NCBI GenBank assembly: GCA_026387355.1
Contig: JAPLLW010000012.1
Location: forward strand, 62,612 to 126,611
Source: Candidatus Omnitrophota bacterium
Lineage (GTDB): Bacteria; Omnitrophota; Gorgyraeia; Gygaellales; Profunditerraquicolaceae
Length of the DNA stretch: 64,000 bases
Direction of reading: 5' to 3'
The position numbers and the translations under genes are program-made. Every line of letters begins with the position of its first letter. The stretch's first letter is position 1. Shown here in pieces: positions 3,985-58,578 of this stretch. The notes beneath the pieces were generated by a model that was not told the origin of the DNA, did no database searches, and saw nothing but the letters and a program-made list of their open reading frames with translations.

Positions 3985-4638
3985 ATGTTTAAGCTAAAGT
4001 TTAAACCCAAAGCAATAATATTTGATATGGACGGGGTAATTGTAGATTCCATGCCGTATCATTTCTTGGCTTGGTATGAAGCCTTGCGGCCATACGGGTT
4101 AAGGGTAAGTTGTTTTGATGTTTACTCCAAGGAGGGTGAGTGCTGGGAAAAGACGCTTAAGGATCTATTCAAACGCTCGGGCATAAGGCCGACTGCAAGT
4201 CTTTTAAACGAAATATTTATCAAGCGCCAAAAGATATTTAAGAAGTATTTCCGGCGTTTTATTTTTAAAGGGGCAGAGGATTACCTGCTTTGTTTAAAGA
4301 GCCAGGGCTATTCCTTGGGTTTAGTAACCGGAAGTCCTATCCAGGAAGTAAATAAAATTTTATCTAGGGATATTCTTGGTTTATTTAACGCTATTGTAGC
4401 CGGAAACCAGGTTAAGAAGGGTAAGCCGCATCCTGAACCATACCTGAAAGCTGCCAAGTTACTTGATTTAAAGCCTAAAGGATGCGTAGTGGTTGAGAAT
4501 GCGCCTTTTGGGATTAAGTCTGCTAAAGGGGCAGGGATGTTTTGTATCGCCCTTACTACTAGCCTGCCTAAGGAATATCTCAAAGAGGCTGATATTGTAG
4601 TTGATAATTTAGCGGATATCTCCCGGATTATTTCTTAA
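3985..4638 (+). CDS. HAD-superfamily hydrolase (beta-phosphoglucomutase / phosphatase-like)
   Basis: HAD motif I 'IIFDMDGVIVDS' is present, with later 'GLVTGS' and 'VVVENAPFGIKSAKGAGM' motifs. Confidence 0.75.
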   Translation: MFKLKFKPKAIIFDMDGVIVDSMPYHFLAWYEALRPYGLRVSCFDVYSKEGECWEKTLKDLFKRSGIRPTASLLNEIFIKRQKIFKKYFRRFIFKGAEDYLLCLKSQGYSLGLVTGSPIQEVNKILSRDILGLFNAIVAGNQVKKGKPHPEPYLKAAKLLDLKPKGCVVVENAPFGIKSAKGAGMFCIALTTSLPKEYLKEADIVVDNLADISRIIS

Positions 4639-4752: not shown

Positions 4753-5805
4753 TTGCCTATGAAAGACTTTCTTTATAAGTTGGCTACGGACAGGTACAGG
4801 GGGCCATTTTTTGCTATTTCAAAGCTCTTACTCTTACTGCTTTCTTTTGTTTATGGAGCCGTGATCAGGGGGTTAACCCTCCTTTTAACCTCTAGGGCGG
4901 TAAGCCCAAAATGCAGAGTTATTAGTATCGGCAATATTACTTTAGGGGGGACAGGTAAAACTTCTTTAGTAAAATTTGTTGCGCTTACCCTTCAGGCTAA
5001 TAAACATAAGGTTGCGATAATTAGCAGGGGTTATAAAAGACTAGCCTTAGGATTGGGTGATGAGCCTTCTATGTTGCTTAATGGTTTAAAGGATATTCCG
5101 GTGATTGTGGACAGGGACAGATTGCGTGGCGCCCAGAGAGCAGCTGATGAATACGCAGCAGATACGGTAATTTTTGATGATGGGATGCAGCAGTGGAGGG
5201 TAAAAAAGGATTTAGAGATCGTAGTAGTGAACGCGGTTGAGGCCTTTGGCAATCGGCATATGATACCTCGTGGGGTATTGCGTGAACCTCTCTCTTCGCT
5301 TAAGCGGGCAGATGTCTTTGTTTTAGCTAAGACTAATCTCGTCCTGAGCACTGAAGATATCAAAAAGAACTTGAATAAGATTAAACCCGGTACGCTTATC
5401 GTAGAGACTATACATCATCCGGAGGATTTATATGAACTTAGAAATCCGCAAAAGCATTTAGCTACGGATTTCCTGAAAGATAAAAACGTGGCTTTATTCT
5501 CAGGGATAGGCGATCCGGATTCTTTTGTAAGTTTGGTCAGGAATCTAGGGGCAAAGCCTAAATTGGATTTGAGGTTTATAGACCACCATAATTATAGCGA
5601 TGAGGATATATCCGGGATTATTAATAAATCTAAGCAGAAAGATCTAAAAATAATTGTTACAACAGAAAAAGATGCTTCTAGGCTCTCTGAAGAGAGGCTC
5701 AAGCCTTTTGATGATTTTAAACTCTTAGTTTTACCCATAAAATTAAAGATTGTTAAAAATGAAGGAGAATTTATTGCTAGATTACTTAGCTTGCGTTCTA
5801 TTTAA
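4753..5805 (+). CDS. lpxK: Tetraacyldisaccharide 4'-kinase LpxK
   Basis: The P-loop 'GNITLGGTGKT' is the LpxK signature. The 350-aa size fits, and waaA and lpxL neighbours support the call. Confidence 0.85.
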   Translation: MPMKDFLYKLATDRYRGPFFAISKLLLLLLSFVYGAVIRGLTLLLTSRAVSPKCRVISIGNITLGGTGKTSLVKFVALTLQANKHKVAIISRGYKRLALGLGDEPSMLLNGLKDIPVIVDRDRLRGAQRAADEYAADTVIFDDGMQQWRVKKDLEIVVVNAVEAFGNRHMIPRGVLREPLSSLKRADVFVLAKTNLVLSTEDIKKNLNKIKPGTLIVETIHHPEDLYELRNPQKHLATDFLKDKNVALFSGIGDPDSFVSLVRNLGAKPKLDLRFIDHHNYSDEDISGIINKSKQKDLKIIVTTEKDASRLSEERLKPFDDFKLLVLPIKLKIVKNEGEFIARLLSLRSI

Positions 5806-7702
5806 TGTCTTAGGCGCTATCTTTCGAATCTTACCTATCGGCGTATGTCTTTTTTTAGGCAGAAGACTTGGGGATTGTTTTTTTTATTTTGACCCCAGGC
5901 ATAAGGCAAGAAGCTACGCCAATATTAAGACTGCCTTGGGGGATAAATTAGAACCCAAGCAGATCTTGCGCTTAACCAGAGAATTCTACCAATCATTTGG
6001 ACAGAGTATAATCGAAATATTTCTTATTCCTATTATTGACCGTAAATATCTGGAAAAATATGTGCAGACTGAAGGCTCTGAGTATGTGTACAGTGCGTTA
6101 AAAAGAGGTAAGGGTGTAATTTTACTATCTGTTCACGCAGGAAGCTGGGAGCTCTCTAATCTTATCAGTGCTAATTTTGGATTTCCATTTGTTTTATTTG
6201 TTAAGGGGCAGCATTTCCCGCGTTTAAATAAATTACTAAATAGATATAGGCAAGCGAAGGGCTGCAAAATAATCACCAGAGAAGGCGGTCTTAAGCAGTT
6301 GATTGATAGTTTAAAAAGTAACTCTGCTGTTGGAATTACTTTGGATCAAGGCGGTAGGGCAGGTAGCTTAACAGATTTCTTTGGCCAAAATGCTTCCATG
6401 TCAACCGGTTGGATAAAGCTTGCGTTAAAATATGACTGTAGCGTTATCCCGGTATTCTTTACGCGAGTTTCAGGGCCAAAGATTAAGGTATTTGCCGCAA
6501 AACCGCTAGAATTGATCAGGAGTAATGATTTAGAAAAGGATATTCAGGATAATTTGAATCTGGCGACTAAAGTTTTTGAGGGATTTATCAGGAAATATCC
6601 AAAAGAATATCTTTGGACTTATAAGATTTGGAAATACTCAGACCAAAGGAATATTCTGATTTTAAGCGATGGTAAGTCCGGGCACCTGCGTCAATCAGAG
6701 GCGCTAGCTAAGATCGCTGGAAATTGTTTCAAGGATAAAGGGATAAAATCAAAAGTTAGTATTGTAGAGATAAAGTTTAAGGGTAGGTTCTCAAAGGTTG
6801 CATTATCCCTAAGTAGTTGCCTTATAGGTAAGTATTCTTGTCAGGGCTGCTTACGGTGTCTTAGAAAGTTCCTTGATGATAATACAAATAAAAGCTTAGC
6901 TGTAATTAAGCCGGATCTGGTTATCTCTTGCGGATCAAAACTTGCTTTGATTAATTATCTAATTTCGGCAGAAAATCAGAGTAAATCTGTTACATTAATG
7001 CGTCCGCCATTTTTTAGTGCAGCTAGATTTGATTTAGTAGTTATGCCACAACACGATCATACTTTCAGGCGTAAGAATATAGTCGTAACTACAGCCGCAC
7101 TGAATCTTATTGATCGGGAATATCTGGATGAGCAATCGGCAAAGCTTATGCGTTCTTACAATCTAAACGCGCAAGCTATCTATCTAGGTATATTAATAGG
7201 AGGATCTAGTAAGAAATTTAGGCTGGATAAGGACTTAATGGTTAGGGTGGTACGGGAGATTAAAACAGTAGCAGAGATAATTAATGCGGATATTCTTTTA
7301 ACTACTTCCCGCCGCACAGAGGGGGAACTCGAAGATTTAATAAAAAAAGAATTTAAGGATTATTCCCGGGCAAAGCTCGTAGTTATTGCTAATGAAAAAA
7401 ATATTCCTGAAGCCGTTGGCGGGATATTAGGTTTAAGTAAGATAATCATAAGTTCTCCAGAAAGTATATCGATGATCTCTGAGGGTGTTAATAGCGCAAG
7501 ACCGGTTGTAGTTTTTAATGCGCCGGGATTAAGTAGGAAGCATCAAGAGTTTTTGAGGAATTTAGCTAAAAAGAATTACATCTCCTTAGCGGAAAAAGAC
7601 AGTCTGGTTAAAGTAGTTACAGATCTTTGGGTGGATAAGCCAGCTAGGCATGTTTTAGAGGATAATGCGTTAATCACAAAAGCCTTAGAGAGAATATTAT
7701 GA
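5750..7702 (+). CDS. Fusion protein with an N-terminal lipid A biosynthesis (Kdo)2-lipid IVA acyltransferase domain (LpxL/HtrB family) and a C-terminal Elm1/DUF1022-like (GT-B-like) domain
   Basis: Residues ~1-300 resemble the LpxL family ('LSVHAGSWELSN', 'ITLDQGG'). Residues ~300-650 begin 'RNILILSDGKSGHLRQSEALAKIAG', the characteristic start of the bacterial 'mitochondrial fission ELM1' family. The annotated start overlaps lpxK by 56 nt, so the true start may be downstream. Confidence 0.65.
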   Translation: MLKMKENLLLDYLACVLFNVLGAIFRILPIGVCLFLGRRLGDCFFYFDPRHKARSYANIKTALGDKLEPKQILRLTREFYQSFGQSIIEIFLIPIIDRKYLEKYVQTEGSEYVYSALKRGKGVILLSVHAGSWELSNLISANFGFPFVLFVKGQHFPRLNKLLNRYRQAKGCKIITREGGLKQLIDSLKSNSAVGITLDQGGRAGSLTDFFGQNASMSTGWIKLALKYDCSVIPVFFTRVSGPKIKVFAAKPLELIRSNDLEKDIQDNLNLATKVFEGFIRKYPKEYLWTYKIWKYSDQRNILILSDGKSGHLRQSEALAKIAGNCFKDKGIKSKVSIVEIKFKGRFSKVALSLSSCLIGKYSCQGCLRCLRKFLDDNTNKSLAVIKPDLVISCGSKLALINYLISAENQSKSVTLMRPPFFSAARFDLVVMPQHDHTFRRKNIVVTTAALNLIDREYLDEQSAKLMRSYNLNAQAIYLGILIGGSSKKFRLDKDLMVRVVREIKTVAEIINADILLTTSRRTEGELEDLIKKEFKDYSRAKLVVIANEKNIPEAVGGILGLSKIIISSPESISMISEGVNSARPVVVFNAPGLSRKHQEFLRNLAKKNYISLAEKDSLVKVVTDLWVDKPARHVLEDNALITKALERIL

Positions 7703-9786
7703 GAGTGCTGCAAATATTACCGGAACTTAATGTCGGGGGTGTTGAAACCGGGACACTGGACCTGGCTAAATACTTAGTGCGTCAGGGCCATCATGCAGTA
7801 GTAGTTTCGGCAGGAGGTGTTTTGGTCAAAGATTTAGAGGCACTGGGAGCTGTGCATTATCAATTACCGGTGCATAAGAAATCGCTATTTACCATGTTTA
7901 AGGCTATAGCGCCACTTGCGGAGATTATAAAAAAAGAAAAGATTGATATTGTGCATGCTCGATCGCGAGTTCCTGCCTGGATAGCTTATTTTGCTGCTCG
8001 AAAATGCAAGGTTGTTTTTATAACTACCTGTCATGGTTATTATAAAATGCATCCTTTTAGCTATGTTATGGGCTGGGCAAAAAGAGTAATTGTTTTGAGT
8101 AATATAATTGCCCGACATATGATCGATGATTTTAGCGTGCCGCATGAACGTATAAAGTTAGTCCCGCGAAGTGTAGATCTGGAGAAGTTTAAATATTTGA
8201 GTCCGGATAAGAAGCGGGGTAAAGAATTTAATATCGGTCTTATCGGTAGGATTACTCCTTTAAAGGGCCATCTTTATTTTATCAAGGCTATGGCTAAGGT
8301 GGCTAGAGTCGTGCCTACATTAAAAATCTGGATAGTGGGAGATGCGCCTAGTTCGCGTCAGGCATATAAAGAACAGGTCCAGGTTTTAACCAGGAGATTG
8401 GGACTTGATCATTGCACGGAGTTTCTGGGGACACAAAGGAATATTCCTGAGATCCTTTCGCATCTGGACCTGGTAGTTTTAGCTACCACAACTCATGAAG
8501 CATTCGGCAGGGTGATTATTGAGGCCCAGGCAGCAGGCGTTCCTGTGGTAGCAACCGAAGTAGGTGGTGTTGTAGATATTATTGAGAATGGTCGCACAGG
8601 TTTACTTGTTCCTCCTGCGGATGCGCAAGGGATGGCGGATGCGGTTGTTAAGATATTCAAGGATCCGTCTCTTGCTCGCGATTTTGCTGAGGCAGCGTAT
8701 AAAAAGGTTAAGGATAAATATAATATTGAATTGATGGTCAAGAATACGCTAGCTGTTTACGAAGAGGCCTTGAGTAACTTCAAGCTGCTCATTATAAAGC
8801 TCAGCTCTTTAGGAGATATTATTTTATCTACCGCAAGTTTAAGAGCGATAAGAGAAAGATTCCCGCATCATAAAGTGAGTCTTTTGGTAGGAGAGGAGTC
8901 CAAAGAAGTATTATTCAGATGCCCATATATAGATGAACTTTTAGTAGTTGATCTTAAAGATAAGGATAAGGGGCTAAAGGGTTTGCTAAGCATTGCCCGT
9001 ATTTTAAGAAAAAAGAACTTTGATTTAGTTATTGATCTGCAGAATAACCGCGCAAGCCATATACTTTCCTTTCTTTCTTTATCCATCGATCGCTACGGCT
9101 ATGATAATAAAAAACTAAGTTTCTTACTTAACCATCGGATTAAGGATATTCTGCCGTTAGTTGATCCGGTAGCGCATCAGTTTAGATTGCTTAAGATGTT
9201 GGGGATAGATCTGAAGGATAACCGTTTAGAGTTGTGGCCAGCTAAAGAAGATGAAGATTATGTGGAGAATTTATTAAATACGCAATGGTTAAGTATTGAC
9301 CAGAAGATCATCGGCATAAATATAAGCGCAAGTAAGCGCTGGCTCACTAAGTATTGGGCCAAAGATAATATTGCGCGGTTGTGCGAGGAGCTGGGTTTAC
9401 GAAATATGCGCGTAGTACTTACCGGAACAGCTAGAGATTCCGCGGACGCTAAAGAGATTATCTCTATGATTAAGAATACAAAAATCATAAATGCCTGCGC
9501 TAAAACCAATGTAAATCAGCTAGCTTGTTTAATTAAAAGATGCTCAGTATATATCTCCGCTGATTCTTCACCTTTACATATTGCTGTAGCAGTAAAGGTT
9601 CCTGTAATCGCATTTTTCGGGCCGACTGATCCTAATAGACATATGCCTCCGGCAAGAGAGGCAATAGTTATTAAAAGGGACCTACCGTGCAGCCCGTGTT
9701 ATAAACCCAAATGCAAGGATAAGAAATGCATGAGTTTGATTACAGTTGAAGAAGTTTTAGGGGCGGTAGAAAAGCTATCAAAATGA
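7699..9786 (+). CDS. Bifunctional glycosyltransferase with an N-terminal GT4 domain and a C-terminal GT9 (LPS heptosyltransferase-like) domain
   Basis: The GT4 motif 'EAFGRVIIEAQAAGVPVVATEVGG...GLLVPP' sits in residues ~1-350. From ~355, 'LLIIKLSSLGDIILSTASLRAIRERFPHHKVSLLVGEE' and the C-terminal 'SADSSPLHIAVAVKVPVIAFFGPTDP' are typical of WaaC/WaaF/WaaQ. Confidence 0.75.
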   Translation: MRVLQILPELNVGGVETGTLDLAKYLVRQGHHAVVVSAGGVLVKDLEALGAVHYQLPVHKKSLFTMFKAIAPLAEIIKKEKIDIVHARSRVPAWIAYFAARKCKVVFITTCHGYYKMHPFSYVMGWAKRVIVLSNIIARHMIDDFSVPHERIKLVPRSVDLEKFKYLSPDKKRGKEFNIGLIGRITPLKGHLYFIKAMAKVARVVPTLKIWIVGDAPSSRQAYKEQVQVLTRRLGLDHCTEFLGTQRNIPEILSHLDLVVLATTTHEAFGRVIIEAQAAGVPVVATEVGGVVDIIENGRTGLLVPPADAQGMADAVVKIFKDPSLARDFAEAAYKKVKDKYNIELMVKNTLAVYEEALSNFKLLIIKLSSLGDIILSTASLRAIRERFPHHKVSLLVGEESKEVLFRCPYIDELLVVDLKDKDKGLKGLLSIARILRKKNFDLVIDLQNNRASHILSFLSLSIDRYGYDNKKLSFLLNHRIKDILPLVDPVAHQFRLLKMLGIDLKDNRLELWPAKEDEDYVENLLNTQWLSIDQKIIGINISASKRWLTKYWAKDNIARLCEELGLRNMRVVLTGTARDSADAKEIISMIKNTKIINACAKTNVNQLACLIKRCSVYISADSSPLHIAVAVKVPVIAFFGPTDPNRHMPPAREAIVIKRDLPCSPCYKPKCKDKKCMSLITVEEVLGAVEKLSK

Positions 9787-10957: not shown

Positions 10958-11727
10958 GATTAATAGTAAGTGCCTGTTTGATTATTGTGTTTGTAGTATC
11001 AATCGGGTATCTACGCAGCATACGCACAGTTACGGTTATTACATATCATTCAATCGCGGCGATTGCGGATGAGGATGACCGGTTAACAGTTTTACCTAAG
11101 TCATTTAACCGGCAAATGCAGTTTTTAAAAGATCATAAATACAATGTTATCTCTTTAGAGAGACTGGGGGAACTTATTAAGTCTAAAAAAGCCCCTGATA
11201 AAACTATTGCCATAACCTTTGATGACGGCTTTAAGGATAATTATCTTTATGCCTATCCTGTTTTAAAGAGGTTAAATTTTCCAGCGACCATATTTATTAT
11301 TGTAGATAAGGTTGGTAGTTCAGGCAAGCGTTTGACTTGGGAGGAGATTAAGGAGATGCAGGGATCTGGTTTAATTACTTTTGGTAGCCATACCTTAAGT
11401 CATCCATATTTAACTGAAATTAATTCCGAGGCTGAGCTAAAAAGGCAAATCTTTGATTCTAAAAAGATTCTCGAGCAGAAATTAGGGGTTCCAGTAGATG
11501 TATTTTGTTATCCTTCCGGTAGATTTAATGCACATATTAAAGATTTGGTAGTCCAGGCAGGTTATAAGTTTGCCGTAGGGACAACTTTGGGGAAGAGGTT
11601 TTCTAATTTCGATCCATATTTAATTAAAAGAGTACGTATTTCTGCAAGTTCGGATAATCTAATTGATTTTTGGGCAAGGGTGAGCGGTTATTATAATTCA
11701 TTTCGGAAGCACAGCCGTACAAATTAA
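10942..11727 (+). CDS. Polysaccharide deacetylase (NodB homology domain), membrane-anchored
   Basis: There is an N-terminal TM helix. 'AITFDDGFKDNY' matches the NodB motif 1 (TFDDG), followed by 'HTLSHPYL'. Confidence 0.8.
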   Translation: MFKRIRLIVSACLIIVFVVSIGYLRSIRTVTVITYHSIAAIADEDDRLTVLPKSFNRQMQFLKDHKYNVISLERLGELIKSKKAPDKTIAITFDDGFKDNYLYAYPVLKRLNFPATIFIIVDKVGSSGKRLTWEEIKEMQGSGLITFGSHTLSHPYLTEINSEAELKRQIFDSKKILEQKLGVPVDVFCYPSGRFNAHIKDLVVQAGYKFAVGTTLGKRFSNFDPYLIKRVRISASSDNLIDFWARVSGYYNSFRKHSRTN

Positions 11728-12770
11728 TGAGTAAAGAGCATTCTGCTAAACGCATCCTTATTTTTAATGTTAATTGGCTAGGAGATGTTTTATTCTCTAC
11801 CGCTGTAATTAGAAATGTTCGACGTAATTTCCCGCATAGTTTTATTGCCTGCGTAATACCCAGCAGGTGCTATCCGGTGCTAAAAGGTAATCCGCATTTA
11901 GACGAAATAATTATCTTTGACGAAAAAGACCGGCATAGAAATGTCCTTCAGCGTTTAGATTTTATTCGCATACTTAAGGCTAAGAAATTTGATATTGCTT
12001 ATTTATTGCACCGTTCTTTCAGCCGCGCCTTAATCTGCAGGCTTGCGGGTATCCCTGAAAGGATAGGGCACCATACAAAGAAGAGAGGCTTTCTACTTAC
12101 AAAAAAAATCATACCTCCGCATAGAGATTCTTTGCATCGTATAGATTATTATTTGGATGTTATTGAAAAGGCGGGTTTAAAGATTGAAGACAGGTTTGCG
12201 GAATTCTTTTTTGGAAATGAGGACTTAGAATTCGTTGAAAAATTCTTAAGCAAGAATACGGTAGCAAAGGAAGATTTTGTAGTTGTGCTGAATCCTGGAG
12301 GAAACTGGTTGGCTAAGCGTTGGCCAAAAGATCATTGGGCGCGTCTTGCGGACAAATTAATACATGATTTCAAAGCCAAAGTGGTACTTACCGGTTCCCA
12401 TAATGATATATCTTTGGCTAAACATATCCAGGATGAGATGGTAAATAAGCCGATAATTGCCTGTGGAGTATTTAATTTAAAACAGCTTGGGGCATTAGCT
12501 AAGAGAGCGGATATATTTATTACTGCTGATACAGGGCCTTTGCATATTGCCAATAGCGTAGGTGCAAAGAAGATTATTGCAATCTTCGGTCCGACCTCAA
12601 CCTTGATTACCGGGCCTTATCCTGTGAAAAATGTAGTCATTCTGCAAAAAGACGTAGGCTGCGTTATCCCTTGTTATGAAGTTAACTGTAAAGATAGCCG
12701 TTGCATGAAGGCAGTTACAGTAGATGACGTAATAAATCAAGTAAAGTTACTAAGACTTACCAATGGTTAA
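11727..12770 (+). CDS. Glycosyltransferase family 9 (ADP-heptose:LPS heptosyltransferase-like)
   Basis: 'ILIFNVNWLGDVLFSTAVIRNVRRNFP' and 'ITADTGPLHIANSVGAKKIIAIFGPT' are typical GT9 motifs. Confidence 0.85.
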   Translation: MSKEHSAKRILIFNVNWLGDVLFSTAVIRNVRRNFPHSFIACVIPSRCYPVLKGNPHLDEIIIFDEKDRHRNVLQRLDFIRILKAKKFDIAYLLHRSFSRALICRLAGIPERIGHHTKKRGFLLTKKIIPPHRDSLHRIDYYLDVIEKAGLKIEDRFAEFFFGNEDLEFVEKFLSKNTVAKEDFVVVLNPGGNWLAKRWPKDHWARLADKLIHDFKAKVVLTGSHNDISLAKHIQDEMVNKPIIACGVFNLKQLGALAKRADIFITADTGPLHIANSVGAKKIIAIFGPTSTLITGPYPVKNVVILQKDVGCVIPCYEVNCKDSRCMKAVTVDDVINQVKLLRLTNG

Positions 12771-14787
12771 TAAAATCTTATTTATAACATTAAGTAATAT
12801 CGGTGATGTAGTATTGACTTTGCCGGTCCTAGATTTCCTGCGTCAGAATTTTCCCAATGCTTCGATTAGCGTAATTTGCGGCGTTAGGCCAAAAGAGCTG
12901 TTTGTTAATAGCCCGTACATCAATAAGCTTATTGTCTACGATAAGTATGCTCACCTTGCGCAGAAGCTAGAATTATTTAATAATCTAAGAAGAGAAAATT
13001 TTGATTTGATAGTGGATTTACGTAACTCCTTTCTGGGAGCGATTTTGCCAACTAGGTTTAGGACTTCCCCATTCCTAATGATACCTAGGTATATACAACA
13101 TATGAAAGATAGGCATCTTTATAGAGTCAAGAGTTTACGGTTAGGGAATGAATTAGCTAAGCCCGTGGATAAAACTTTTAATATCGCTCGTGCCGATGAG
13201 GAGTTTATTAAAAAGATATTGCAAGAAAATAATATACGTGAAGACGATAGATTGGTAGTAGTTTCTGCCGGAGCCAGGAGTGGTAGCAAGAAATGGCCCA
13301 GGGAAAGATTTGTGCAATTAATTTTTAAGTTAGTAAATGAATTATCTGTGAAAATAATTCTGGTGGGGGATAAAGGAGATGTTGCGTTAAGCCAGTCTAT
13401 TGCTAAGGAGTTAAAAAGTCAAGTCCTGGACTTAAGCGGCAGAACAAACTTAGGTGCATTAGCTGCGCTTATAAAGAAATCTAACCTTTTAATATGTAAT
13501 GATAGTGCAGTAATGCATATTGCTAGCTATTTTGATATTCCGGTTGTAGCTATATTTGGAATTACCGATGATGAAAAATACGCCCCATGGTCACAAGATT
13601 CTTCTGTGGTAAAGAAAGAGATCTTCTGCAGACCGTGCGAAAAGGCTGTATGCAGATTTGGGACTTTAGAATGTCTATCCCGGGTGCAGGTTGACGATGT
13701 CTTTAGAGAGGTAAAAGACAGATTAGAGAAAAAAGTTATAAGTAAAATCCCGCAAGATCTTAAGCGTATATTAATTGTACGTACTGATAGAATCGGAGAT
13801 GTGCTTTTATCTACTCCTGTAATTAAGGCGATTAGAGAGAGATATCCAAATGCTTTTCTTGCGATGATGGTTTCTGCGTATGCCAGGGAGATTATCGAAG
13901 GCAATCCTTATTTAGACCAGGTGATTATTTATGATAAAGACACAAAGCATAAGACTTGGATAAGTTCAATTAAGTTTGCCAAAGATCTTAATAAAAAGAA
14001 GTTTGATCTAGCGCTAGTCTTACATCCGACTAACCGCGTGCATTTAATTACTTTCCTCGCTGGGGTTCCCAGGAGGATAGGGTTAAACCGGAAGTTAGGG
14101 TTTTTGCTTACTAGTAAGTCAACGCATACCAAACAATTCGGGGAAAAGCATGAGTTAGAATATAACCTTGGTTTATTAAATTTTCTAGGGATTAAAGCAG
14201 AAGATAAAAGATTGTATATGCCGATTAAAGAAGAATCTGAAAAGAAGATCGAAGAGATGTTTCAGTTTCAATGTTTATGGTCGAAAGATAAATTATTAGC
14301 AATTCATCCGGCTGCCAGCTGTCCTTCTAAGATTTGGCCGGTAGAACGTTTTGCTGAATTAGCCGAAAAATTAGCGCAAAAATACGGGTTTAAAGTTTTA
14401 ATTGTCGGCGCCCCAAATGAAATGGGGCTTGCCGAAGATTTAATTAAGCGCATACATATACCGGTGATTAATTTCGTAGGTAAGACATCGATTAGTCAAT
14501 TAGCCAGTTTATTAAAAAGATGTACACTTTTTATTTCAAATGATTCAGGCCCGGTGCATATTGCATCAGCCGTAGGTACGCCGGTAATCTCAATTTTCGG
14601 AAGGAATCAGGCAGGCTTGAGTCCTAAGCGTTGGGGGCCAGTGGGCCCTAAAGATAAATTCTTGCATAAAGAGGTTGGGTGCATTAAGTGTTTGGCTCAT
14701 AATTGCAAGAAGGAATTCGCCTGTCTTAAGGCGATAAGCGTTGAGGATGTGGTTGAAGCGGCTAGTGTAATTATTAATCAACATTAG
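12763..14787 (+). CDS. Tandem double GT9 heptosyltransferase-like protein (two complete GT9 domains in one polypeptide)
   Basis: Domain 1 has 'ILFITLSNIGDVVLTLPVLDFLRQNFP' and 'ICNDSAVMHIASYFDIPVVAIFG'. Domain 2 (from ~aa 335) has 'ILIVRTDRIGDVLLSTPVIKAIRERYP' and 'ISNDSGPVHIASAVGTPVISIFG'. Confidence 0.8.
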   Translation: MVNKILFITLSNIGDVVLTLPVLDFLRQNFPNASISVICGVRPKELFVNSPYINKLIVYDKYAHLAQKLELFNNLRRENFDLIVDLRNSFLGAILPTRFRTSPFLMIPRYIQHMKDRHLYRVKSLRLGNELAKPVDKTFNIARADEEFIKKILQENNIREDDRLVVVSAGARSGSKKWPRERFVQLIFKLVNELSVKIILVGDKGDVALSQSIAKELKSQVLDLSGRTNLGALAALIKKSNLLICNDSAVMHIASYFDIPVVAIFGITDDEKYAPWSQDSSVVKKEIFCRPCEKAVCRFGTLECLSRVQVDDVFREVKDRLEKKVISKIPQDLKRILIVRTDRIGDVLLSTPVIKAIRERYPNAFLAMMVSAYAREIIEGNPYLDQVIIYDKDTKHKTWISSIKFAKDLNKKKFDLALVLHPTNRVHLITFLAGVPRRIGLNRKLGFLLTSKSTHTKQFGEKHELEYNLGLLNFLGIKAEDKRLYMPIKEESEKKIEEMFQFQCLWSKDKLLAIHPAASCPSKIWPVERFAELAEKLAQKYGFKVLIVGAPNEMGLAEDLIKRIHIPVINFVGKTSISQLASLLKRCTLFISNDSGPVHIASAVGTPVISIFGRNQAGLSPKRWGPVGPKDKFLHKEVGCIKCLAHNCKKEFACLKAISVEDVVEAASVIINQH

Positions 14788-14937
14788 CGTCTCACCTTGT
14801 CTTGTTTCTCGCAGGGACGCTTGTTTTGCCCTAGCGTGGCAAAACTAAGCTCGGGTCGGCTGCGTCGCTCTCTGACACTAAGGTGACGGAACCATGCCCG
14901 CTCCTTGCCGACACGCCCTGCTCGAAATCAAGTCAAG
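14788..14937 (+). repeat. GC-rich ~150-bp intergenic repeat element, copy A (MITE-like, or a structured RNA), with imperfect terminal inverted repeats
   Basis: It is ~85% identical to 50766-50914. The left end 'CGTCTCACCTTGTCTTGTTTCTCGCAGG' and the right end 'CCTGCTCGAAATCAAGTCAAG' form an imperfect inverted repeat. An internal hairpin reads GTTTTGCC-ctagcgt-GGCAAAAC. It is sharply GC-rich in an AT-rich genome and starts 1 nt after the stop codon. Confidence 0.6.
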
Positions 14938-14999
14938 TTGAGGCGCATGAAATATCTAGTTGATTTAACAGTAAATTATGTTAAAATTATAGCTTCGCC

Positions 15000-15929
15000 A
15001 TGATTAACTTAAACAAAGTAAAGACATATTCAATTAAGACCCGTTTTAGCAAGGTAAAATCGACAGATTTTGCCAAGATACCGGCTAAGGGGAGGAGTTT
15101 CTCTAGCTTTATGGATTCCCTTCCTAATATCTTAAAGGCTAAGGAGATACACTCTATTGTTGAAAGCATAGTTAAGGCTCGAAAGCAGAAGAAAGCCGTG
15201 ATCTTAATGGCTGGCGCGCATGTGATAAAATGCGGGCTGAATCCGGTGATAATTGAGCTGATTAAAAAGAAGGTTATTACTTGCGTATGCCTTAACGGAG
15301 CCGGTATAATCCATGATTTTGAACTAACCCTTCAGGGGAAGACTTCTGAAGATGTTGCGGAGAATTTAAAAACCGGTAAATTCGGGATGGGCCGGGAGAC
15401 CGCCGATTTCTTAAATAACGCTGTTGTCGACGGAGTAGCTGATGGCTTAGGCTTAGGTTATGCAGTAGCCAAGAAGATAGATGAAACAAAATTGCCGCAT
15501 AAAAACCTAAGTTTATTGCTAGCAGCTTATAAGCAGAAGATCCCGCTTTGCGTATTTGTGGCTATCGGAACAGACATTATCCACCAGCATCCTTCTTTTG
15601 ATGCCGGGCTTACTGCCGAAGGTTCCCAGCGCGATTTTTATACTTTAGTAGAGCATATAAGTTCACTTAATAATGGCGGAGTGGTTTTAAATTTTGGTTC
15701 AACGGTAATTATGCCGGAGGTATTCCTTAAGGCGCTTAATCTTGCGCGCAATCTTGGTGGAAAAGTGAAAGATTTTACTACTGCAAATTTTGATATGATT
15801 CACCACTACCGGCCGCAGCAGAATGTAGTGACGCGACCGGTTCTATCCGGCGGTAAAGGTTATTATATTATCGGTCACCACGAAATAATGCTCCCGCTTT
15901 TAGCGCAGGCAGTAACGGAGAGGTTATGA
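15000..15929 (+). CDS. Deoxyhypusine synthase-like protein (DHS family, NAD-binding fold)
   Basis: The pattern 'VILMAGAHVIKCG..LNPVIIELIKKKVITCVCLNGAGIIHDF' parallels the DHS core 'IFLGYTSNLISSG..VDVLVTTAGGVEEDL'. A weaker C-terminal similarity 'GVVLNFGSTVI' is also present. The call rests on recalled motifs only. Confidence 0.45.
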   Translation: MINLNKVKTYSIKTRFSKVKSTDFAKIPAKGRSFSSFMDSLPNILKAKEIHSIVESIVKARKQKKAVILMAGAHVIKCGLNPVIIELIKKKVITCVCLNGAGIIHDFELTLQGKTSEDVAENLKTGKFGMGRETADFLNNAVVDGVADGLGLGYAVAKKIDETKLPHKNLSLLLAAYKQKIPLCVFVAIGTDIIHQHPSFDAGLTAEGSQRDFYTLVEHISSLNNGGVVLNFGSTVIMPEVFLKALNLARNLGGKVKDFTTANFDMIHHYRPQQNVVTRPVLSGGKGYYIIGHHEIMLPLLAQAVTERL

Positions 15930-16939
15930 AGAATCTTAAAGAAATAATCAAGAAACTCAATAGATCTAAAGTTCTTGTCATCGGGGATTTGATTCTTGAT
16001 GAATACATCTGGGGAAAGGTAGAGAGGATTTCTCCCGAGGCCCCTGTTCCAGTAGTCTGGGCAAATAAAAAAACACATGTTCCGGGAGGGGCTGCGAACG
16101 TAGCGAATAATATCCGTTCATACGGAGCAGATGTGTATTTAGCGGGAGTACTCGGCAGCGATAAGAACGCCCAGGTGCTTTTAACAGAGCTAGAAAATAA
16201 TAAGATAAATACTAAGGGGATATTTGAGGAATCTACTCGATATACGACTGTAAAAAGCCGGATTATTGCAGGGCATCAACAGATAGTCAGAGTTGATTGG
16301 GAGCATACCGCGCCTTTAGCAAAAGAGACAACGCATAAGATTTTTAATTTTATTAAAATGAATATCAAAAATTTTGATGCGGTGATTATCGAAGATTATG
16401 GTAAGGGGGTAATTAACGCCCAGTTGCTTGGGAGCGTTATCTCTCTTGCTCGCTCGCATAATAAGATTATAATGGTTGATCCGAAAGAAGACCATTTTCA
16501 ATATTACGTAGGGGTAAATTCAATTACGCCTAACCGTAAGGAGCTTGAGAATGCGGTAAGGAATTTAAAGATTAAGGATAATAAAAATAAGTTGAAACTT
16601 GATAGCGATAAACTCTTCACCGATAAAGATATAAATCTTGCCGGTCAGCAAATCTTAGAATATTTAAACCTTGAGTCTTTATTGGTGACTTTGGGTGAGC
16701 AGGGAATGAAGTTATTTGAGAAGGGCGGCCGCATGACCCATATTCCGACCGTAGCTCAGGAGGTATTTGATGTCTCTGGAGCAGGGGATACGGTAATTTC
16801 CACTTTTACACTTGGTTTGTGCGCCGGTGCAAGTAAATTAGAGGCAGCGCATATTGCTAATTATGCAGCAGGTATCGTAGTCGGAAAAGTTGGCACGGCT
16901 ACAACTACCCGTGATGAACTATTAGAGAGGTTGGGTTAG
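15926..16939 (+). CDS. hldE: D-glycero-beta-D-manno-heptose-7-phosphate kinase (HldE/RfaE domain I, PfkB family). The adenylyltransferase domain is absent
   Basis: 'VLVIGDLILDEYIWGKVERISPEAPVPVV' is the RfaE kinase signature, and 'DVSGAGDTVISTF' is the PfkB motif. At 337 aa it covers only domain I. Confidence 0.85.
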   Translation: MKNLKEIIKKLNRSKVLVIGDLILDEYIWGKVERISPEAPVPVVWANKKTHVPGGAANVANNIRSYGADVYLAGVLGSDKNAQVLLTELENNKINTKGIFEESTRYTTVKSRIIAGHQQIVRVDWEHTAPLAKETTHKIFNFIKMNIKNFDAVIIEDYGKGVINAQLLGSVISLARSHNKIIMVDPKEDHFQYYVGVNSITPNRKELENAVRNLKIKDNKNKLKLDSDKLFTDKDINLAGQQILEYLNLESLLVTLGEQGMKLFEKGGRMTHIPTVAQEVFDVSGAGDTVISTFTLGLCAGASKLEAAHIANYAAGIVVGKVGTATTTRDELLERLG

Positions 16940-16941
16940 CT

Positions 16942-17682
16942 ATGGATGTGATCGGAGTAATTCCTGCTAGGTATTCTTCCACAAGATTCGAAGGTAAGGT
17001 CTTGGCTAAAATACTCGGTAAACCCATGATCCAGCATGTCTGGGAGAGGGCAAAGCAGGCAAAGTGTTTAGACGATATAATTATCGCTTGCGATAACGAA
17101 TCAGTGGCCAGAGTTGCTCAGGAATTTGGGGCAAAAGTTGTGATTACTTCTAAGGATCATACCTGCGGGACAGATAGGATAAGCGAAGTGATAAATCCTC
17201 TGGATGTAAAGATAGTGGTGAATATCCAAGGGGATGAGCCCTTGATTCATCCTACGATGATAGATAGCGTAGCGCGTGCGCTTTTAGAAGATAAAAGTTT
17301 AAATATGGCTACGCTTATGAAAAGGATAGATGATGCACAGTCTGTTAGCGATCCGAATGTAGTTAAGGTGGTAGTGGATAGAAATAATTTTGCCTTGTAT
17401 TTCTCACGCTCAGCCATTCCTTATTTTGCGAATAATTCCGAAATTAAAGATCCGGTTTATTTTAAGCATATCGGGCTATATGCCTATACCAAAGATTTTA
17501 TCTTTACCTATAGAAATCTACCCGTTTCTATTTTAGAACAGATTGAAAAACTTGAACAGTTAAGGGTTCTGGATGGTGGTTTTAGGATTAAGGTTATTGA
17601 AACAAAGTATGATACCGTAGGCGTAGATACTCAAAGCGACCTAGAGAAGGTTGAGGCTTATTTAAGAGAAGAGAAGATATAA
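16942..17682 (+). CDS. kdsB: 3-deoxy-manno-octulosonate cytidylyltransferase (CMP-Kdo synthetase)
   Basis: 'VIGVIPARYSSTRFEGKVLAKILGKPMIQHVWERA' is the canonical KdsB N-terminus. Confidence 0.9.
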   Translation: MDVIGVIPARYSSTRFEGKVLAKILGKPMIQHVWERAKQAKCLDDIIIACDNESVARVAQEFGAKVVITSKDHTCGTDRISEVINPLDVKIVVNIQGDEPLIHPTMIDSVARALLEDKSLNMATLMKRIDDAQSVSDPNVVKVVVDRNNFALYFSRSAIPYFANNSEIKDPVYFKHIGLYAYTKDFIFTYRNLPVSILEQIEKLEQLRVLDGGFRIKVIETKYDTVGVDTQSDLEKVEAYLREEKI

Positions 17683-18494
17683 TGCATGAGGTAATGGTAA
17701 AAAATATTCCGCTCGGTAATTCCAGGCCTTTGGTGCTTATTGCCGGACCCTGCGTAATCGAATCCCAAACGTTATGTCTTGATACCGCCAAAAGAATTAA
17801 GGATATTACTGTTAAGTTAGGTATTCCTTATATATTTAAATCCAGCTTTGATAAGGCTAACCGTACCTCCGTAGATTCTTATCGCGGGCCGGGGATAAAA
17901 AAAGGCCTTGAGGTTTTAAATAAGGTTAAGCAGCAGATCAAGGTTCCGGTATTAAGCGATGTGCATTGCGCTAAGGATATGCAAGAGGCTGCGAAAGTCT
18001 TGGATATTATCCAGATTCCGGCTTTTTTATCACGCCAGACGGATATTATAGTAAGCGCAGCTAAAACCGGCAAGGTTGTGAATATAAAAAAAGGGCAATT
18101 CTTGGCTCCTTGGGATATCTTGCCGATTATCAAGAAAATTGAATCCGTAGGCAATAAGAAGATTATCATTACTGAGCGGGGGGTAAGTTTTGGTTACAAT
18201 AATTTAGTTACGGATTTTAGGGCGCTACAGATAATGCGCGATTTTGGTTATCCGGTTATCTATGATGCAACCCATAGTATTCAGATTCCCGGTGGGAAGG
18301 GAACTTGTTCCGGAGGAGAAAGAAAGTTCGTGGATGGATTATCGCGCTCAGCCGTAGCTTTTGGTTGCGATGGCCTGTTTCTGGAAGTGCATCCTGATCC
18401 GGATAAAGCGCCTTGCGACGGAGCCAATATGATTAATCTAAAAGATTTGGAAAGGCTACTTAAACAAATTAAAAAGATAGAGGCAGCATTATGA
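17682..18494 (+). CDS. kdsA: 2-dehydro-3-deoxyphosphooctonate aldolase (Kdo-8-P synthase)
   Basis: 'LVLIAGPCVIES' and the DAHP-synthase-I family architecture, at 270 aa. Confidence 0.9.
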   Translation: MHEVMVKNIPLGNSRPLVLIAGPCVIESQTLCLDTAKRIKDITVKLGIPYIFKSSFDKANRTSVDSYRGPGIKKGLEVLNKVKQQIKVPVLSDVHCAKDMQEAAKVLDIIQIPAFLSRQTDIIVSAAKTGKVVNIKKGQFLAPWDILPIIKKIESVGNKKIIITERGVSFGYNNLVTDFRALQIMRDFGYPVIYDATHSIQIPGGKGTCSGGERKFVDGLSRSAVAFGCDGLFLEVHPDPDKAPCDGANMINLKDLERLLKQIKKIEAAL

Positions 18495-19459
18495 AGATAG
18501 ATGTGATTAAAAGGGCAAGAGAGGTTTTTGATATCGAGGCAGGCGCAATTAAAGATTTAAAAAAGCGCCTGGGTAAGAATTTTAAAGATTCAGTAAGTTT
18601 AATCCTGAAGACAAAAGGTCGGGTAATCGTAAGCGGGATGGGTAAGACCGGGATTATCGCTCAGAAATTTTCTGCTACTCTTGCATCAACCGGTACACCT
18701 AGTCTATTTTTGCATACTGCTGAAGCAATTCACGGCGATCTAGGTAAGGTTACAAACGACGATGTAGTTATTATACTTTCTAATAGCGGTTCGACCGAAG
18801 AGATGAAGCAATTTCTCCCGCTATTAAAGAAGATAGGTGCTAAAGTGATTGCGCTTACCGGTAACACAAAGTCTATTTTAGCAAAATATAGCGATTTAGT
18901 CTTAGATGTATCCGTAAAGAAAGAAGCATGTCCTTTAGGTCTTGCGCCTACGGCGTCTACTACCGCAACTCTAGCTATGGCTGATGCCCTAGCGGTCTGC
19001 TTATTGGAATTAAAAGGTTTTAAAGAAAAAGATTTTGCATTCTTTCATCCCGGTGGTGCTTTAGGCAAGCGCCTGCTTTTGAAGGTTGAAGATATTATGC
19101 GCTCAGGCAAAGCTAACCCGATAGTTAAAGAGAATGAATTGGTCTCAAGGGTGCTTTTAAAGATTACTCAGGCCCGCGCAGGTTCGGCTACAGTAATAGA
19201 TAGAGCCGGGAAGTTAATAGGTATATTTACTGACGGAGATCTGCGCCGCCATGTGGAGATTGATCGTAATCTTTCTGTACGCAAGATTAAAGAGGTAATG
19301 ACCAAGAATCCTACTGTAGTTTATAAGGATATGCTGGCAGCCGAGGCTATGCGCATCTTGCAGGAGAAAAGAATTGATGAATTACCGGTAGTAAATATTA
19401 AAAGAGAGCCGGTTGGACTTTTAGATGTGCAGGATCTTTTAAAAGCAGGATTAGCTTAA
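18491..19459 (+). CDS. kdsD: Arabinose-5-phosphate isomerase KdsD/KpsF (SIS plus tandem CBS domains)
   Basis: The SIS motif 'GRVIVSGMGKTGIIAQKFSATLASTGTPS' is followed by C-terminal CBS pairs. Confidence 0.9.
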   Translation: MKIDVIKRAREVFDIEAGAIKDLKKRLGKNFKDSVSLILKTKGRVIVSGMGKTGIIAQKFSATLASTGTPSLFLHTAEAIHGDLGKVTNDDVVIILSNSGSTEEMKQFLPLLKKIGAKVIALTGNTKSILAKYSDLVLDVSVKKEACPLGLAPTASTTATLAMADALAVCLLELKGFKEKDFAFFHPGGALGKRLLLKVEDIMRSGKANPIVKENELVSRVLLKITQARAGSATVIDRAGKLIGIFTDGDLRRHVEIDRNLSVRKIKEVMTKNPTVVYKDMLAAEAMRILQEKRIDELPVVNIKREPVGLLDVQDLLKAGLA

Positions 19460-19462
19460 GGC

Positions 19463-20005
19463 ATGTTCAATAATCCCATTACTGAAGATTTAAAAGAGCA
19501 CGCAAAAAAGATAAAGATTCTATTATTGGATGTGGATGGAGTGCTTACTGACGGCCGCATTGTTTATGATTCTAAGGCCCGGGATTCAAAGTTCTTTGAC
19601 GTGCATGATGGGTTAGGCGTTTATCTTTTAAGCAAAGTAGGTATAAAGACCATAATTGTGACTGCTAAGAGCTCGCGGGCGATTAAGCCAAGGGCCAAAG
19701 ACATGCGGGTAGCTGAAGTATTCGGTGATGTCTCACCCAAAAGCGCTATCCTTGATAAAATTATAAAGAAATATAATGTTTCTAAAGATGAAGTTTGTTT
19801 TGTCGCCGATGATCTTGTGGATCTAGGCTTAATGAAACTTGTTGGTTTTCCGGTTGCAGTCTTTAATGCCTGTCCTGAAATTAAACAGGTAGCCTCTTAT
19901 ATTACTATAAAGCATGGAGGTAGAGGCGCTGTGCGCGAAGTTGCCGAATTGATTCTTAAGGCGCAGGGCAAATGGAATGATATTGTAAAATTTTATGAAG
20001 CTTAA
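19463..20005 (+). CDS. kdsC: Kdo-8-phosphate phosphatase (HAD family)
   Basis: 'IKILLLDVDGVLTDGRIVY' and the 180-aa size fit KdsC. Its position after kdsD mirrors the E. coli yrbH-yrbI order. Confidence 0.85.
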   Translation: MFNNPITEDLKEHAKKIKILLLDVDGVLTDGRIVYDSKARDSKFFDVHDGLGVYLLSKVGIKTIIVTAKSSRAIKPRAKDMRVAEVFGDVSPKSAILDKIIKKYNVSKDEVCFVADDLVDLGLMKLVGFPVAVFNACPEIKQVASYITIKHGGRGAVREVAELILKAQGKWNDIVKFYEA

Positions 20006-20903
20006 ACAGCTCTTTTTTATCTTAGTTATCTTCTTTTTATCAGTAACTAACTGTTTAGCGGTGAAAAGTACCCCAAGCGTAGAATCTGACCAGCAGATCA
20101 GCGGTTTTTCTTTAGCAGGATACGCTGATAAGGGTAAGAAGAGTTGGGATATTGCCGGTAAAGAAGCTGAGATTTTTGCGGATACGGTAAAATTAAAAGA
20201 CGTTGAAGGAAATCTTTACGGTAAAGATGAGGATGTTAACCTTACTTCTAAGACAGGAGATTTTAATAAGGCAGACGGCAAAGTGCACTTAGAAAAGGAT
20301 GTGGTAATTACTACTTCAAAAGGGACTAAGCTTACCACTAATTCTATGGATTGGGATAGGAAGAATGAGATAGTTACTACGCTGGATAGGGTTAATATAG
20401 AAAAAGATAATATGAATCTTACGGGGATTGGGGCTCATGGAGAGCAGCGCTTAAAAAAAGTTGCGCTTAATAAAGACGTAAGGTTGGATATTAATCCCAC
20501 TCCTCCTTCGCTTAAGGCAGGAGAGATGAGCGTGAGCGATAAGGTTGTGGTTACTTGCGACGGTCCTCTGACCATAGATTACGATAAGAATGTTGCTACC
20601 TTTAATGATAATGTCAGGGTAGAGAGGATTGATTCTGTAATTTATAGCGATGCAATGGATTTATATTTTAGCTCAGGGAAATCCAAAGACGTAGTATCAA
20701 ATAAGGCCCCAAGCCTTATGGGAAACAATAAGATTGACAGGATCGTGGCTCGAGGCAATGTTAGGATTGTACGCGGTGAGAATACCTCTTATAGCGACGA
20801 AGCAGTTTATACAGCTATTGATAAAAAGATAATACTAAGCGGTAGACCGAAGCTAGTTTTTTATACCACAGAGGATTTTAAAAATGCATCTTTTGGAAAT
20901 TAA
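19995..20903 (+). CDS. LptA/LptC (OstA-like) periplasmic LPS-transport protein
   Basis: There is a signal peptide. The protein is rich in beta-strands with OstA-like repeats, and its position between kdsC and lptB matches the conserved yrbH-yrbI-lptC-lptA-lptB arrangement. The 302-aa length may indicate a fused or extended LptC/LptA. Confidence 0.6.
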
Positions 20904-50755: not shown

Positions 50756-50765
50756 AATATATTTA

Positions 50766-50914
50766 GCGTCTGTCTTGTCTTGTTTCTCGCAGGGACGCTT
50801 GTTTTGCCCCAGCGTGGCAAAACTGCGCTCGGGTCGGCTGCGTCGCTCGTCCGCGTTTCACTCGGACACCGTGCCCGCTCCTTGCCGACACGCCCTGCTC
50901 GAAATCAAGCCAAG
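50766..50914 (+). repeat. GC-rich ~150-bp intergenic repeat element, copy B (paralogue of 14788-14937)
   Basis: About 85% identical to copy A. The left end 'GCGTCTGTCTTGTCTTGTTTCTCGCAGG' and right end 'CCTGCTCGAAATCAAGCCAAG' form an imperfect inverted repeat. It has the same internal GTTTTGCC/GGCAAAAC hairpin and begins ~10 nt after the queA stop. Confidence 0.6.
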
Positions 50915-50956
50915 CCATTCGCTAAGCTTAGGCCATATATAAATAATTAAGGTTTA

Positions 50957-55593: not shown

Positions 55594-55600
55594 TATTTAA

Positions 55601-55736: not shown

Positions 55737-55749
55737 ATAAATTTATTGG

Positions 55750-56628: not shown

Positions 56629-56647
56629 TAATCAAAAGGAGACTTTT

Positions 56648-58573: not shown

Positions 58574-58578
58574 TTTTT

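Follow-up and report, generated by a model that had tools for sequence, protein, structure and literature searches.

Within a 64,000-nucleotide stretch of DNA from a Candidatus Omnitrophota bacterium (contig JAPLLW010000012.1 of assembly GCA_026387355.1; termed here the window, with positions counted from its first letter) lies a gene for a protein of 309 residues, on the forward strand at 15000..15929, which an earlier reading of the sequence (the original prediction) had described as deoxyhypusine-synthase-like and as embedded in a Kdo/heptose operon. The analysis described here identifies its product as an ordinary member of the GSU2086 family (NCBIfam NF052581), a catalogued, uncharacterised family with a fold of the type seen in deoxyhypusine synthase (DHS) and in the LOR/SDH cyclodeaminases, and as a candidate heptose enzyme. 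Because genes of this family lie beside heptose genes in many phyla, and because its members occur fused to heptose-pathway domains, the family is very probably a component of the ADP-heptose (glycero-manno-heptose) pathway, which feeds the heptosyltransferases of glycosyltransferase family 9 (GT9).

The gene and its family

Read from 15000, the open reading frame (ORF) is matched by the curated model NF052581 ("GSU2086 family protein") at 409.1 bits against a cutoff of 250 (E = 1.3e-122), in an alignment that runs end to end (residues 2-304 against profile positions 2-301 of 301); a match of this strength and coverage puts the ORF far beyond chance. Both motifs quoted in the original prediction are present, VILMAGAHVIKCG at residues 67-79 and VITCVCLNGAGIIHDF at residues 92-107, and in an hhalign comparison exactly these segments fall opposite residues 98-139 of human DHS, TIFLGYTSNLISSG...VDVLVTTAGGVEEDL (the human query sequence was checked and is identical to that of the PDB chains). 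The start at 15000 is preferred over a second candidate at Met38, since NF052581 matches from residue 2 and both R15 and K18 are conserved. One public annotation of the identical protein (P0002, 272 aa) apparently begins at Met38, that is, at the ATG at 15111, which is preceded by a strong internal AAGGGGAGGAG string at 15087-15097.

Downstream, the TGA stop codon (15927-15929) overlaps the ATG of the next ORF (15926-15928), so that the two genes share the four nucleotides ATGA at 15926..15929, just as had been claimed. The next gene is hldA (15926..16939, forward strand), which encodes a heptose-7-phosphate kinase with a PfkB domain and no second activity (TIGR02198 rfaE_dom_I, 382 bits against a cutoff of 345). 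From this arrangement the GSU2086-family gene is judged to be translationally coupled to hldA, for which a putative Shine-Dalgarno-like string, GGAGAGG, lies within the 3' end of the upstream ORF (15917..15923, forward strand); the same ATGA overlap with hldA, at a spacing of -4, occurs at loci of nine other species. Upstream, a consensus scan picked out a weak sigma-70-like promoter match, TTGATT-16-TAAAAT with a TG element, at 14960..14987 on the forward strand, 12 nt 5' of the ATG at 15000; the scan found one such site against 2.4 expected in shuffled sequences, so that the match alone is not significant.

The family is large: a word-indexed search returned at least 8000 candidate homologous clusters, and an exhaustive search of a library clustered at 50% identity returned 2485 clusters at E <= 1e-3, of which 478 lie at E <= 1e-30. 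The nearest homologues, at 73-89% identity, come from metagenome-assembled genomes of Omnitrophota, and P0002 is 100% identical across 88% of the query. Publicly, family members (P0002, P0006, P0054 and others) carry the names "deoxyhypusine synthase family protein", "deoxyhypusine synthase" or "hypothetical protein"; the 'deoxyhypusine synthase' naming, which derives from a partial match to the Pfam DS model, is probably a systematic over-annotation. Odd architectures among the representatives include a tandem duplication of the domain (P0123, 679 aa) and an N-terminal RyR domain (P0236, 408 aa); another protein (P0243, 723 aa) ends in a GH38 mannosidase fragment, which is possibly an assembly artefact. 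A phage origin was considered and dropped, there being no match in phage records. In the literature searched, no paper joins deoxyhypusine synthase with heptose, and deoxyhypusine synthase is not mentioned in the papers listed for lipopolysaccharide (LPS) and gmhA; GSU2086 itself appears in a single paper, as a hypothetical protein of a sugar operon.

Association with the ADP-heptose pathway

A scan of one genome per species of the GTDB yielded at least 597 confirmed relatives, the best 80 loci of which were used for the neighbourhood counts given here. These 80 loci come from Omnitrophota, Desulfobacterota, Nitrospirota, Bacteroidota/Ignavibacteria, Gemmatimonadota and Acidobacteriota/Aminicenantes, and from Poribacteria, Binatia, KSB1, Zixibacteria, Verrucomicrobiota and Methylomirabilota. 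When the neighbouring genes were clustered without labels and the clusters then identified with NCBIfam, GT9 heptosyltransferases were found at 23 loci, GmhA at 22 (in 20 of them directly upstream of the family gene) and the HldA kinase at 19 (in 17 directly downstream). A seed-based census with score thresholds gave GmhA at 23 of the 80 loci, GT9 at 22, HldA at 19, HldC at 5 and GmhB at 1, and at least one of these five lies within two genes of the family gene at 51 of the 80. Gene orders vary: one locus (L019) reads PRPP-synthetase-like gene, family gene, HldC-GmhB fusion, GmhA, HldA, two GT9 genes, PMT_2, GT4 and a third GT9 gene; another (L029) reads lpxA, family gene, hldE; and loci of Bacteroidota read GT9, DUF3108, family gene, CPBP protease. 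The link to heptose genes, which the original prediction had regarded as unexpected, is thus instead the defining genomic signature of the family in many phyla, and it extends to gene fusions.

These fusions were surveyed among the 150 best representatives of the family. The commonest partner is HldC (the CTP_transf_like domain; P0135, P0139, P0169, P0198 and P0268); others are PfkB/HldA (P0199), a whole HldE (P0233), SIS_2/GmhA (P0207 and P0221), a HAD domain resembling GmhB (P0204) and an ARMT1 phosphatase together with HldC (P0167). Fusions to all four remaining activities of the pathway indicate that the protein works within it and replaces none of the four. Its candidacy as a substitute for GmhA, HldA, GmhB or HldC was rejected for this reason, the family both co-occurring with and being fused to each of them; moreover, neither an SIS nor a HAD domain was matched in the window protein by Pfam or NCBIfam. 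As to the alternative that the original prediction had allowed for, namely no significant DS-family match and identity instead with a heptose enzyme such as GmhA or GmhB, the DS match stands just above threshold and the protein is neither of the two.

In Geobacter sulfurreducens, GSU2086 lies between hldE (GSU2085) and gmhA (GSU2087), with gmhB (GSU2084) and rmlA (GSU2083) adjoining; the window differs in that the family gene is followed by the kinase-only hldA rather than by the bifunctional hldE. In a transposon-sequencing (Tn-seq) screen of Geobacter on electrodes, the three genes hldE, GSU2086 and gmhA score -3.1, -3.2 and -3.7 (PMC5585712).

Two homologues of about 40% identity are carried by plasmids and keep essentially all of the conserved residues described below. 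On plasmid pDCAR1 of Solidesulfovibrio carbinolicus (L081, 8559-17932) the order is an HldE with its domains reversed (nucleotidyltransferase N-terminal, PfkB C-terminal), the family gene and an SIS gene, surrounded by genes for pseudaminic or neuraminic acid, split transketolase genes, methyltransferase genes as well as three radical-SAM genes, a setting that suggests a cluster on the plasmid for making a decorated glycan. On a Chloroflexota plasmid (L082, CP069395, 2010-16096) the order is HAD, family gene, PfkB and SIS, with no nucleotidyltransferase, and the module directly follows genes for a GntR regulator, an AP_endonuc_2 isomerase, two Gfo/Idh/MocA oxidoreductases, DeoC and a sugar ABC transporter. 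Chloroflexota are not known to make LPS, and this locus could represent a salvage or catabolic variant of the heptose module.

Relationship to deoxyhypusine synthases and cyclodeaminases

An AlphaFold2 model of the single-domain, 309-residue protein, computed with 103 diverse family members, has a mean predicted local distance difference test (pLDDT) score of 97.6 and a predicted template-modelling (pTM) score of 0.93, and consists of six parallel strands alternating with helices. In a Foldseek search of the PDB with this model, the top ranks are nearly all deoxyhypusine synthases (7cmc from P. horikoshii, TM score 0.67, 16% identity), with the Methanococcus maripaludis cyclodeaminase 3c2q at rank 6 and the cyclodeaminase ArgZ (6juy) at rank 43. 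In a search of the PDB sequences with the family profile, ArgZ and AgrE are matched at E values of 2e-6 to 1e-5, 3c2q at 5e-5 and DHS at 0.02, the match being limited to one stretch of about 65 residues with the motif G..vi.tG ... nGA.aiHD.E.A.G. On the strength of these structural and profile matches the protein is placed in the DHS/LOR-SDH-cyclodeaminase structural superfamily, slightly nearer the cyclodeaminase branch. The claim of a DHS-like fold is thereby borne out, with a Rossmann-type core and glycine-rich dinucleotide loops; in sequence, nothing but the N-terminal nucleotide-loop motifs can be aligned with DHS.

A kinship in function is another matter. The check that had been proposed, a hidden Markov model (HMM) search for the Pfam DS family (PF01916), does return a match, at 29.2 bits against a gathering score of 27; it covers only about a quarter of the model, however (residues 46-115 against profile positions 12-82 of 288), rather than the whole domain. 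The NCBIfam equivalog models for DHS score 15-27 bits against cutoffs of 300-500 (TIGR00321, 27.3 against 304; the others, 15-20). In a profile-profile comparison only 46 columns align, K62-F107 of the window protein with L94-L139 of human DHS, the DHS profile having been built from vertebrate and plant sequences (the top 120 DHS matches were too alike for a deep profile); a profile compared with the single human sequence aligns over 38 columns, and a forced global hhalign alignment is meaningless, so that a residue-level mapping onto DHS was given up. Within the aligned columns, G72-K77 and N99-G102 stand opposite the NAD-binding loops 104-109 and 131-134 of human DHS, and the invariant H105 and D106 stand opposite E137 and D138, with His in place of E137.

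Catalysis by DHS depends on Lys329 (human numbering), in the loop between the last two beta-strands. In the corresponding segment of the window protein (residues 266-292, an equivalence that is based on fold topology and not on residue-level superposition) no column reaches 60% Lys among the 103 members, K286 being Lys in 33%; the only Lys-rich columns of the family are 18, 77 and 244. Window protein and DHS thus differ both in overall sequence (12-16% identity) and in the lack of a conserved counterpart of the Lys329 loop. Moreover, because bacteria, as far as we know, use EF-P rather than eIF5A, the substrate of a true DHS would be lacking. The idea of a genuine DHS was rejected on HMM coverage and scores, on the missing catalytic-lysine loop and on residue chemistry, and the original prediction does not hold insofar as it implied a DS-family enzyme in the functional sense.

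With the C-terminal Rossmann domain of the LOR/SDH-type ornithine cyclodeaminases (ArgZ/AgrE, 6juy and 6lrf; M. maripaludis 3c2q; PF21570 and TIGR00300) the window protein has in common the fold and the HD.E motif. It differs from them in that it has no N-terminal LOR/SDH domain, in that the likeness in sequence extends over only about 65 residues, and in its context of heptose genes rather than of arginine or ornithine genes. The cyclodeaminase models score below their cutoffs for the window protein (PF21570, 20 bits against 27; TIGR00300, 15 against 411), and some other members of the GSU2086 family reach 27-33 bits on PF21570. A search for ArgZ-type homologues that started from a 64-residue segment returned only fragments of at most 112 aa.

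Conserved residues and the ligand crevice

Among the 103 members, 23 positions are nearly invariant: H74, K77, H105, D106, E108, T115, S116, E117, E133, H186, D192, H195, H197, D212, N231, E240, K244, D265, Y270, R271, R279, H294 and E295; two further histidines, H269 and H293, are kept in 60-66% of members. In the AlphaFold2 model every one of the conserved residues is placed either where a strand ends C-terminally or in the opening turns of the next helix, the region that normally forms the ligand crevice in a fold of DHS type. Being mostly His, Arg, Lys, Asp and Glu, these crevice residues would suit an anionic phosphosugar better than spermidine; it is the abundance of Arg, Lys and His, in particular, that favours a phosphorylated ligand. 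Of the original suggestion of an NAD-dependent enzyme acting on sugars or polyamines, the sugar-pathway role is accordingly upheld by neighbourhoods and fusions, whereas the polyamine role finds no support, the crevice being basic and the neighbourhoods free of polyamine genes; NAD dependence is plausible.

A possible counterpart of HldD

In Proteobacteria, the epimerisation at C6 that converts D-glycero- into L-glycero-manno-heptose is performed by HldD, a short-chain dehydrogenase/reductase (SDR). Among the loci and representatives examined, HldD is the sole canonical step of the pathway that is never found beside, or fused to, the GSU2086 family. A search for HldD within 10 kb on either side of 80 family genes (1.2 Mb) gave no match of at least 80 bits and only three weak, generic SDR matches of 20-46 bits, a negative that any error in the E. 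coli HldD query sequence would weaken; Pfam annotation of the key operons likewise gave no SDR, and a seed search together with annotation of most ORFs of at least 150 aa found no HldD in the window. The window protein itself has no SDR/Epimerase domain match in Pfam or NCBIfam and is no member of the HldD family (TIGR02197). The corresponding cluster of Helicobacter pylori reads gmhA-hldE-hldD-gmhB (HP0857-HP0860; PMC8204981). With the other three genes the same, GSU2086 of Geobacter fills the slot that hldD has in H. pylori; what is proposed is a functional analogy without homology, in which both proteins would use a bound nicotinamide cofactor with no net redox change.

The chemistry of the fold accords with such an analogy. 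Deoxyhypusine synthase, homospermidine synthase and the LOR/SDH cyclodeaminases all hold, as far as is known, a tightly bound nicotinamide-type dinucleotide, on which a hydride is borrowed with no net redox change, and HldD likewise borrows a hydride, on a different scaffold. Since the structural relatives and HldD have this in common, a redox-neutral epimerisation of heptose is proposed. The window protein, a single-domain, cytoplasmic protein of about 310 residues with a six-stranded Rossmann-like fold, would hold a dinucleotide in its crevice, where the strands end C-terminally; it would take a hydride from a phosphorylated or ADP-activated heptose and then return it, the likeliest reaction being C6 epimerisation from D-glycero- to L-glycero-manno-heptose. 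In the window it is co-translated with the heptose-7-phosphate kinase HldA. As to the substrate, the frequency of HldC as a fusion partner favours ADP-heptose, while the persistent triad of SIS, family and PfkB genes, together with the Chloroflexota cluster that has no nucleotidyltransferase, favours a heptose phosphate. Taken as a whole, this explanation (an enzyme of the heptose module that catalyses a redox-neutral stereochemical conversion) is put forward tentatively as the best one; its assignment as an epimerase, acting most likely at C6 of the heptose, is a little more tentative still. More doubtful again is the full proposal that an epimerase which borrows a hydride, with NAD or perhaps a nickel-pincer dinucleotide as its cofactor, makes L-glycero-D-manno-heptose in HldD's stead in several phyla, which would include Omnitrophota, Desulfobacterota, Nitrospirota, Bacteroidota, Acidobacteriota, Gemmatimonadota and others.

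Several observations weigh against the epimerase proposal or parts of it. Eight conserved histidines plus several carboxylates exceed the needs of a plain NAD site, and this surplus could reflect a metal-dependent or non-redox mechanism. At position 186 (15555-15557), which is His in 91% of the family, the window protein carries Phe; its Omnitrophota clade typically has Phe or Tyr there (Phe in 105, Tyr in 9 and His in 6 of the 120 closest homologues). All the other conserved polar residues are retained, and Phe186 is regarded as a clade-specific active-site variant. About 29 of the 80 loci have no heptose gene nearby, and the HldD search reached over the 10-kb flanks only. The Tn-seq phenotype of GSU2086 could be a polar effect on hldE. 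The Chloroflexota plasmid locus fits heptose phosphates, or even catabolism, better than it fits ADP-heptose. Finally, NAD is not to be assumed as the cofactor, because the HD.E motif also occurs in cyclodeaminases that are reported to use a nickel-pincer adenine dinucleotide.

Some of these points suit a different explanation, unlikely in itself, in which the protein is a non-redox enzyme or accessory factor that acts on heptose phosphates between GmhA and HldA, such as a heptose-7-phosphate anomerase or mutarotase, a metal-dependent phosphoesterase or mutase, or a scaffold that passes the unfavourable GmhA product to the kinase; the Rossmann-like crevice would then hold a phosphosugar and not NAD. 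Less probable than this is an enzyme that makes a non-canonical heptose (epimeric at C2, C3 or C4, say, or a keto-heptose) for the cores or glycans of particular lineages and is no equivalent of HldD. The arguments from fold and context apply to it just as they do to the HldD-like reading; the Solidesulfovibrio copy, set amid nonulosonic-acid, methyltransferase and three radical-SAM genes, points to a decorated glycan, and the LPS core structures of nearly all carrier phyla are unknown. A family so widespread, so strongly conserved and so regularly tied to plain sets of gmhA, hldE and GT9 genes speaks for a core step rather than for decoration, however, and all GT9 enzymes characterised to date use, to our knowledge, ADP-L,D- or ADP-D,D-manno-heptose. 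The same role might also be played with nickel-pincer adenine dinucleotide (NPAD), or another modified nicotinamide cofactor, in place of NAD. In profile comparisons ArgZ, AgrE and 3c2q stand nearer to the family than DHS does, and they have the nGA.aiHD.E.A.G motif in common with it; TIGR00300 is named in NCBIfam as nickel-pincer dependent, and the ornithine cyclodeaminases of that type are reported to use NPAD, as cited in PMC13524815. In addition, nickel-pincer enzymes are typically racemases or epimerases, and the family has many conserved histidines; no lar-type genes recur among the annotated neighbour clusters, though, and none is found among the annotated ORFs of the window. This variant is judged quite improbable.

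The last two explanations have little to recommend them. A non-catalytic regulator or sensor of the pathway that binds ADP-heptose or NAD is conceivable, inasmuch as folds of DHS and Sir2 type take up ligands that resemble ADP-ribose, and ADP-heptose belongs to the ADP-sugars; yet some 25 nearly invariant polar residues at strand ends, and fusion in cis to catalytic domains, are typical of enzymes, and neither Pfam nor NCBIfam finds a DNA-binding or signalling domain. A regulator is accordingly very improbable, and the protein is likely to be an enzyme. Most improbable of all is a true aminobutyl transferase of deoxyhypusine- or homospermidine-synthase type that acts on a polyamine or on an amine of an LPS precursor: its credentials are the Pfam DS score above the gathering threshold, the DHS fold match and the public DHS-family names, and against these stand the low equivalog scores, the mere 46 aligned columns, the lack of a conserved Lys between the last two strands, the invariant His in place of E137, the basic, His-rich crevice that would suit anionic ligands, and neighbourhoods without polyamine genes.

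Genomic context in the window

The genes given here with coordinates between 11727 and 20005 lie on the forward strand. Upstream of the GSU2086-family gene are a GT9 heptosyltransferase-family gene (11727..12770; Pfam Glyco_transf_9, 124 bits) and a tandem one, which encodes 674 residues with two GT9 domains (12763..14787; 247.8 bits over two stretches). Beyond hldA follow genes for a CMP-Kdo synthetase of kdsB type (16942..17682; CTP_transf_3, 205 bits), a Kdo-8-phosphate synthase of kdsA type (17682..18494; DAHP_synth_1, 245 bits), an arabinose-5-phosphate isomerase of kdsD type with an SIS and two CBS domains (18491..19459; SIS, 99 bits; CBS, 70 bits) and a kdsC-like HAD phosphatase (19463..20005; Hydrolase_3 and Hydrolase). 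The neighbours named in the original prediction are therefore in place, with one correction: the adjoining kinase is not hldE but the kinase-only hldA. After kdsC come an lptC-like gene and a probable lptB, and farther upstream of the family gene lie waaA, lpxK and an lpxL-type gene; together with the GT9, hldA and kds genes these mark the region as an LPS super-operon. Since the window has hldA and no recognisable gmhA, hldC, gmhB or hldD, the remainder of the heptose pathway is placed elsewhere in the genome.

Other genes of the window are unusual in their own right. An LpxL-type acyltransferase carries a C-terminal extension of about 350 residues (5750-7702), a GT4-GT9 fusion encodes 695 residues (7699-9786), and the LptC protein, of 302 residues, has a weakly LptA-like C-terminus (19995-20903). 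A HAD phosphatase gene that adjoins waaA and lpxK (3985-4638) is a possible substitute for GmhB, although the match is weak. At 54760-60287, FolD, a methylenetetrahydrofolate-reductase-like gene, a Prismane/CO-dehydrogenase family protein and a pyridine-nucleotide-disulphide oxidoreductase are encoded together, and are possibly related to C1 or Wood-Ljungdahl metabolism in this Omnitrophota genome.

The repeat element that had been noted immediately upstream of the gene is real. It is about 150 nt long and lies between the tandem GT9 gene and the GSU2086-family gene (14787..14945, forward strand), with a second copy at approximately 50765-50925, between queA and tgt. The outer arms of the two copies are 96% identical and the central hairpins differ; both copies begin at the stop codon of the preceding gene (the GT9 gene and queA, respectively), and their GC content is above that of their surroundings. 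The predicted RNA fold has an energy of -73.7 kcal/mol (z = -6.2). No Rfam family matches the repeat, and its two conserved core segments have no exact match in the 80 related loci. A role as a regulatory RNA of the GSU2086-family gene was rejected on these two grounds and because the second copy lies at queA/tgt; the repeat looks like a mobile or repetitive extragenic palindromic (REP)-like insertion, that is, a genome-specific structured element resembling a miniature inverted-repeat transposable element (MITE) or REP, and stands outside the conserved module.

Conclusions

The ADP-heptose pathway (GmhA, HldE or HldA/HldC, GmhB and HldD) is regarded as complete; it is a target for antibiotic adjuvants, and it yields heptose 1,7-bisphosphate and ADP-heptose, both agonists of innate immunity. 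The GSU2086 family is probably an unrecognised enzyme of this pathway that is present in many bacterial phyla: a fifth conserved pathway protein, known from hundreds of species in at least a dozen phyla and occurring in fusion with four pathway enzymes. Thousands of database entries named "deoxyhypusine synthase" or "deoxyhypusine synthase family protein" are probably misnamed. The existence of such a protein implies either that a large share of bacteria carry out a known step with another enzyme or that the work on Proteobacteria has missed a step. If the proposed function is correct, it would provide the first carbohydrate substrate for the DHS/cyclodeaminase fold, and action at the heptose-phosphate stage might reorder the textbook pathway.

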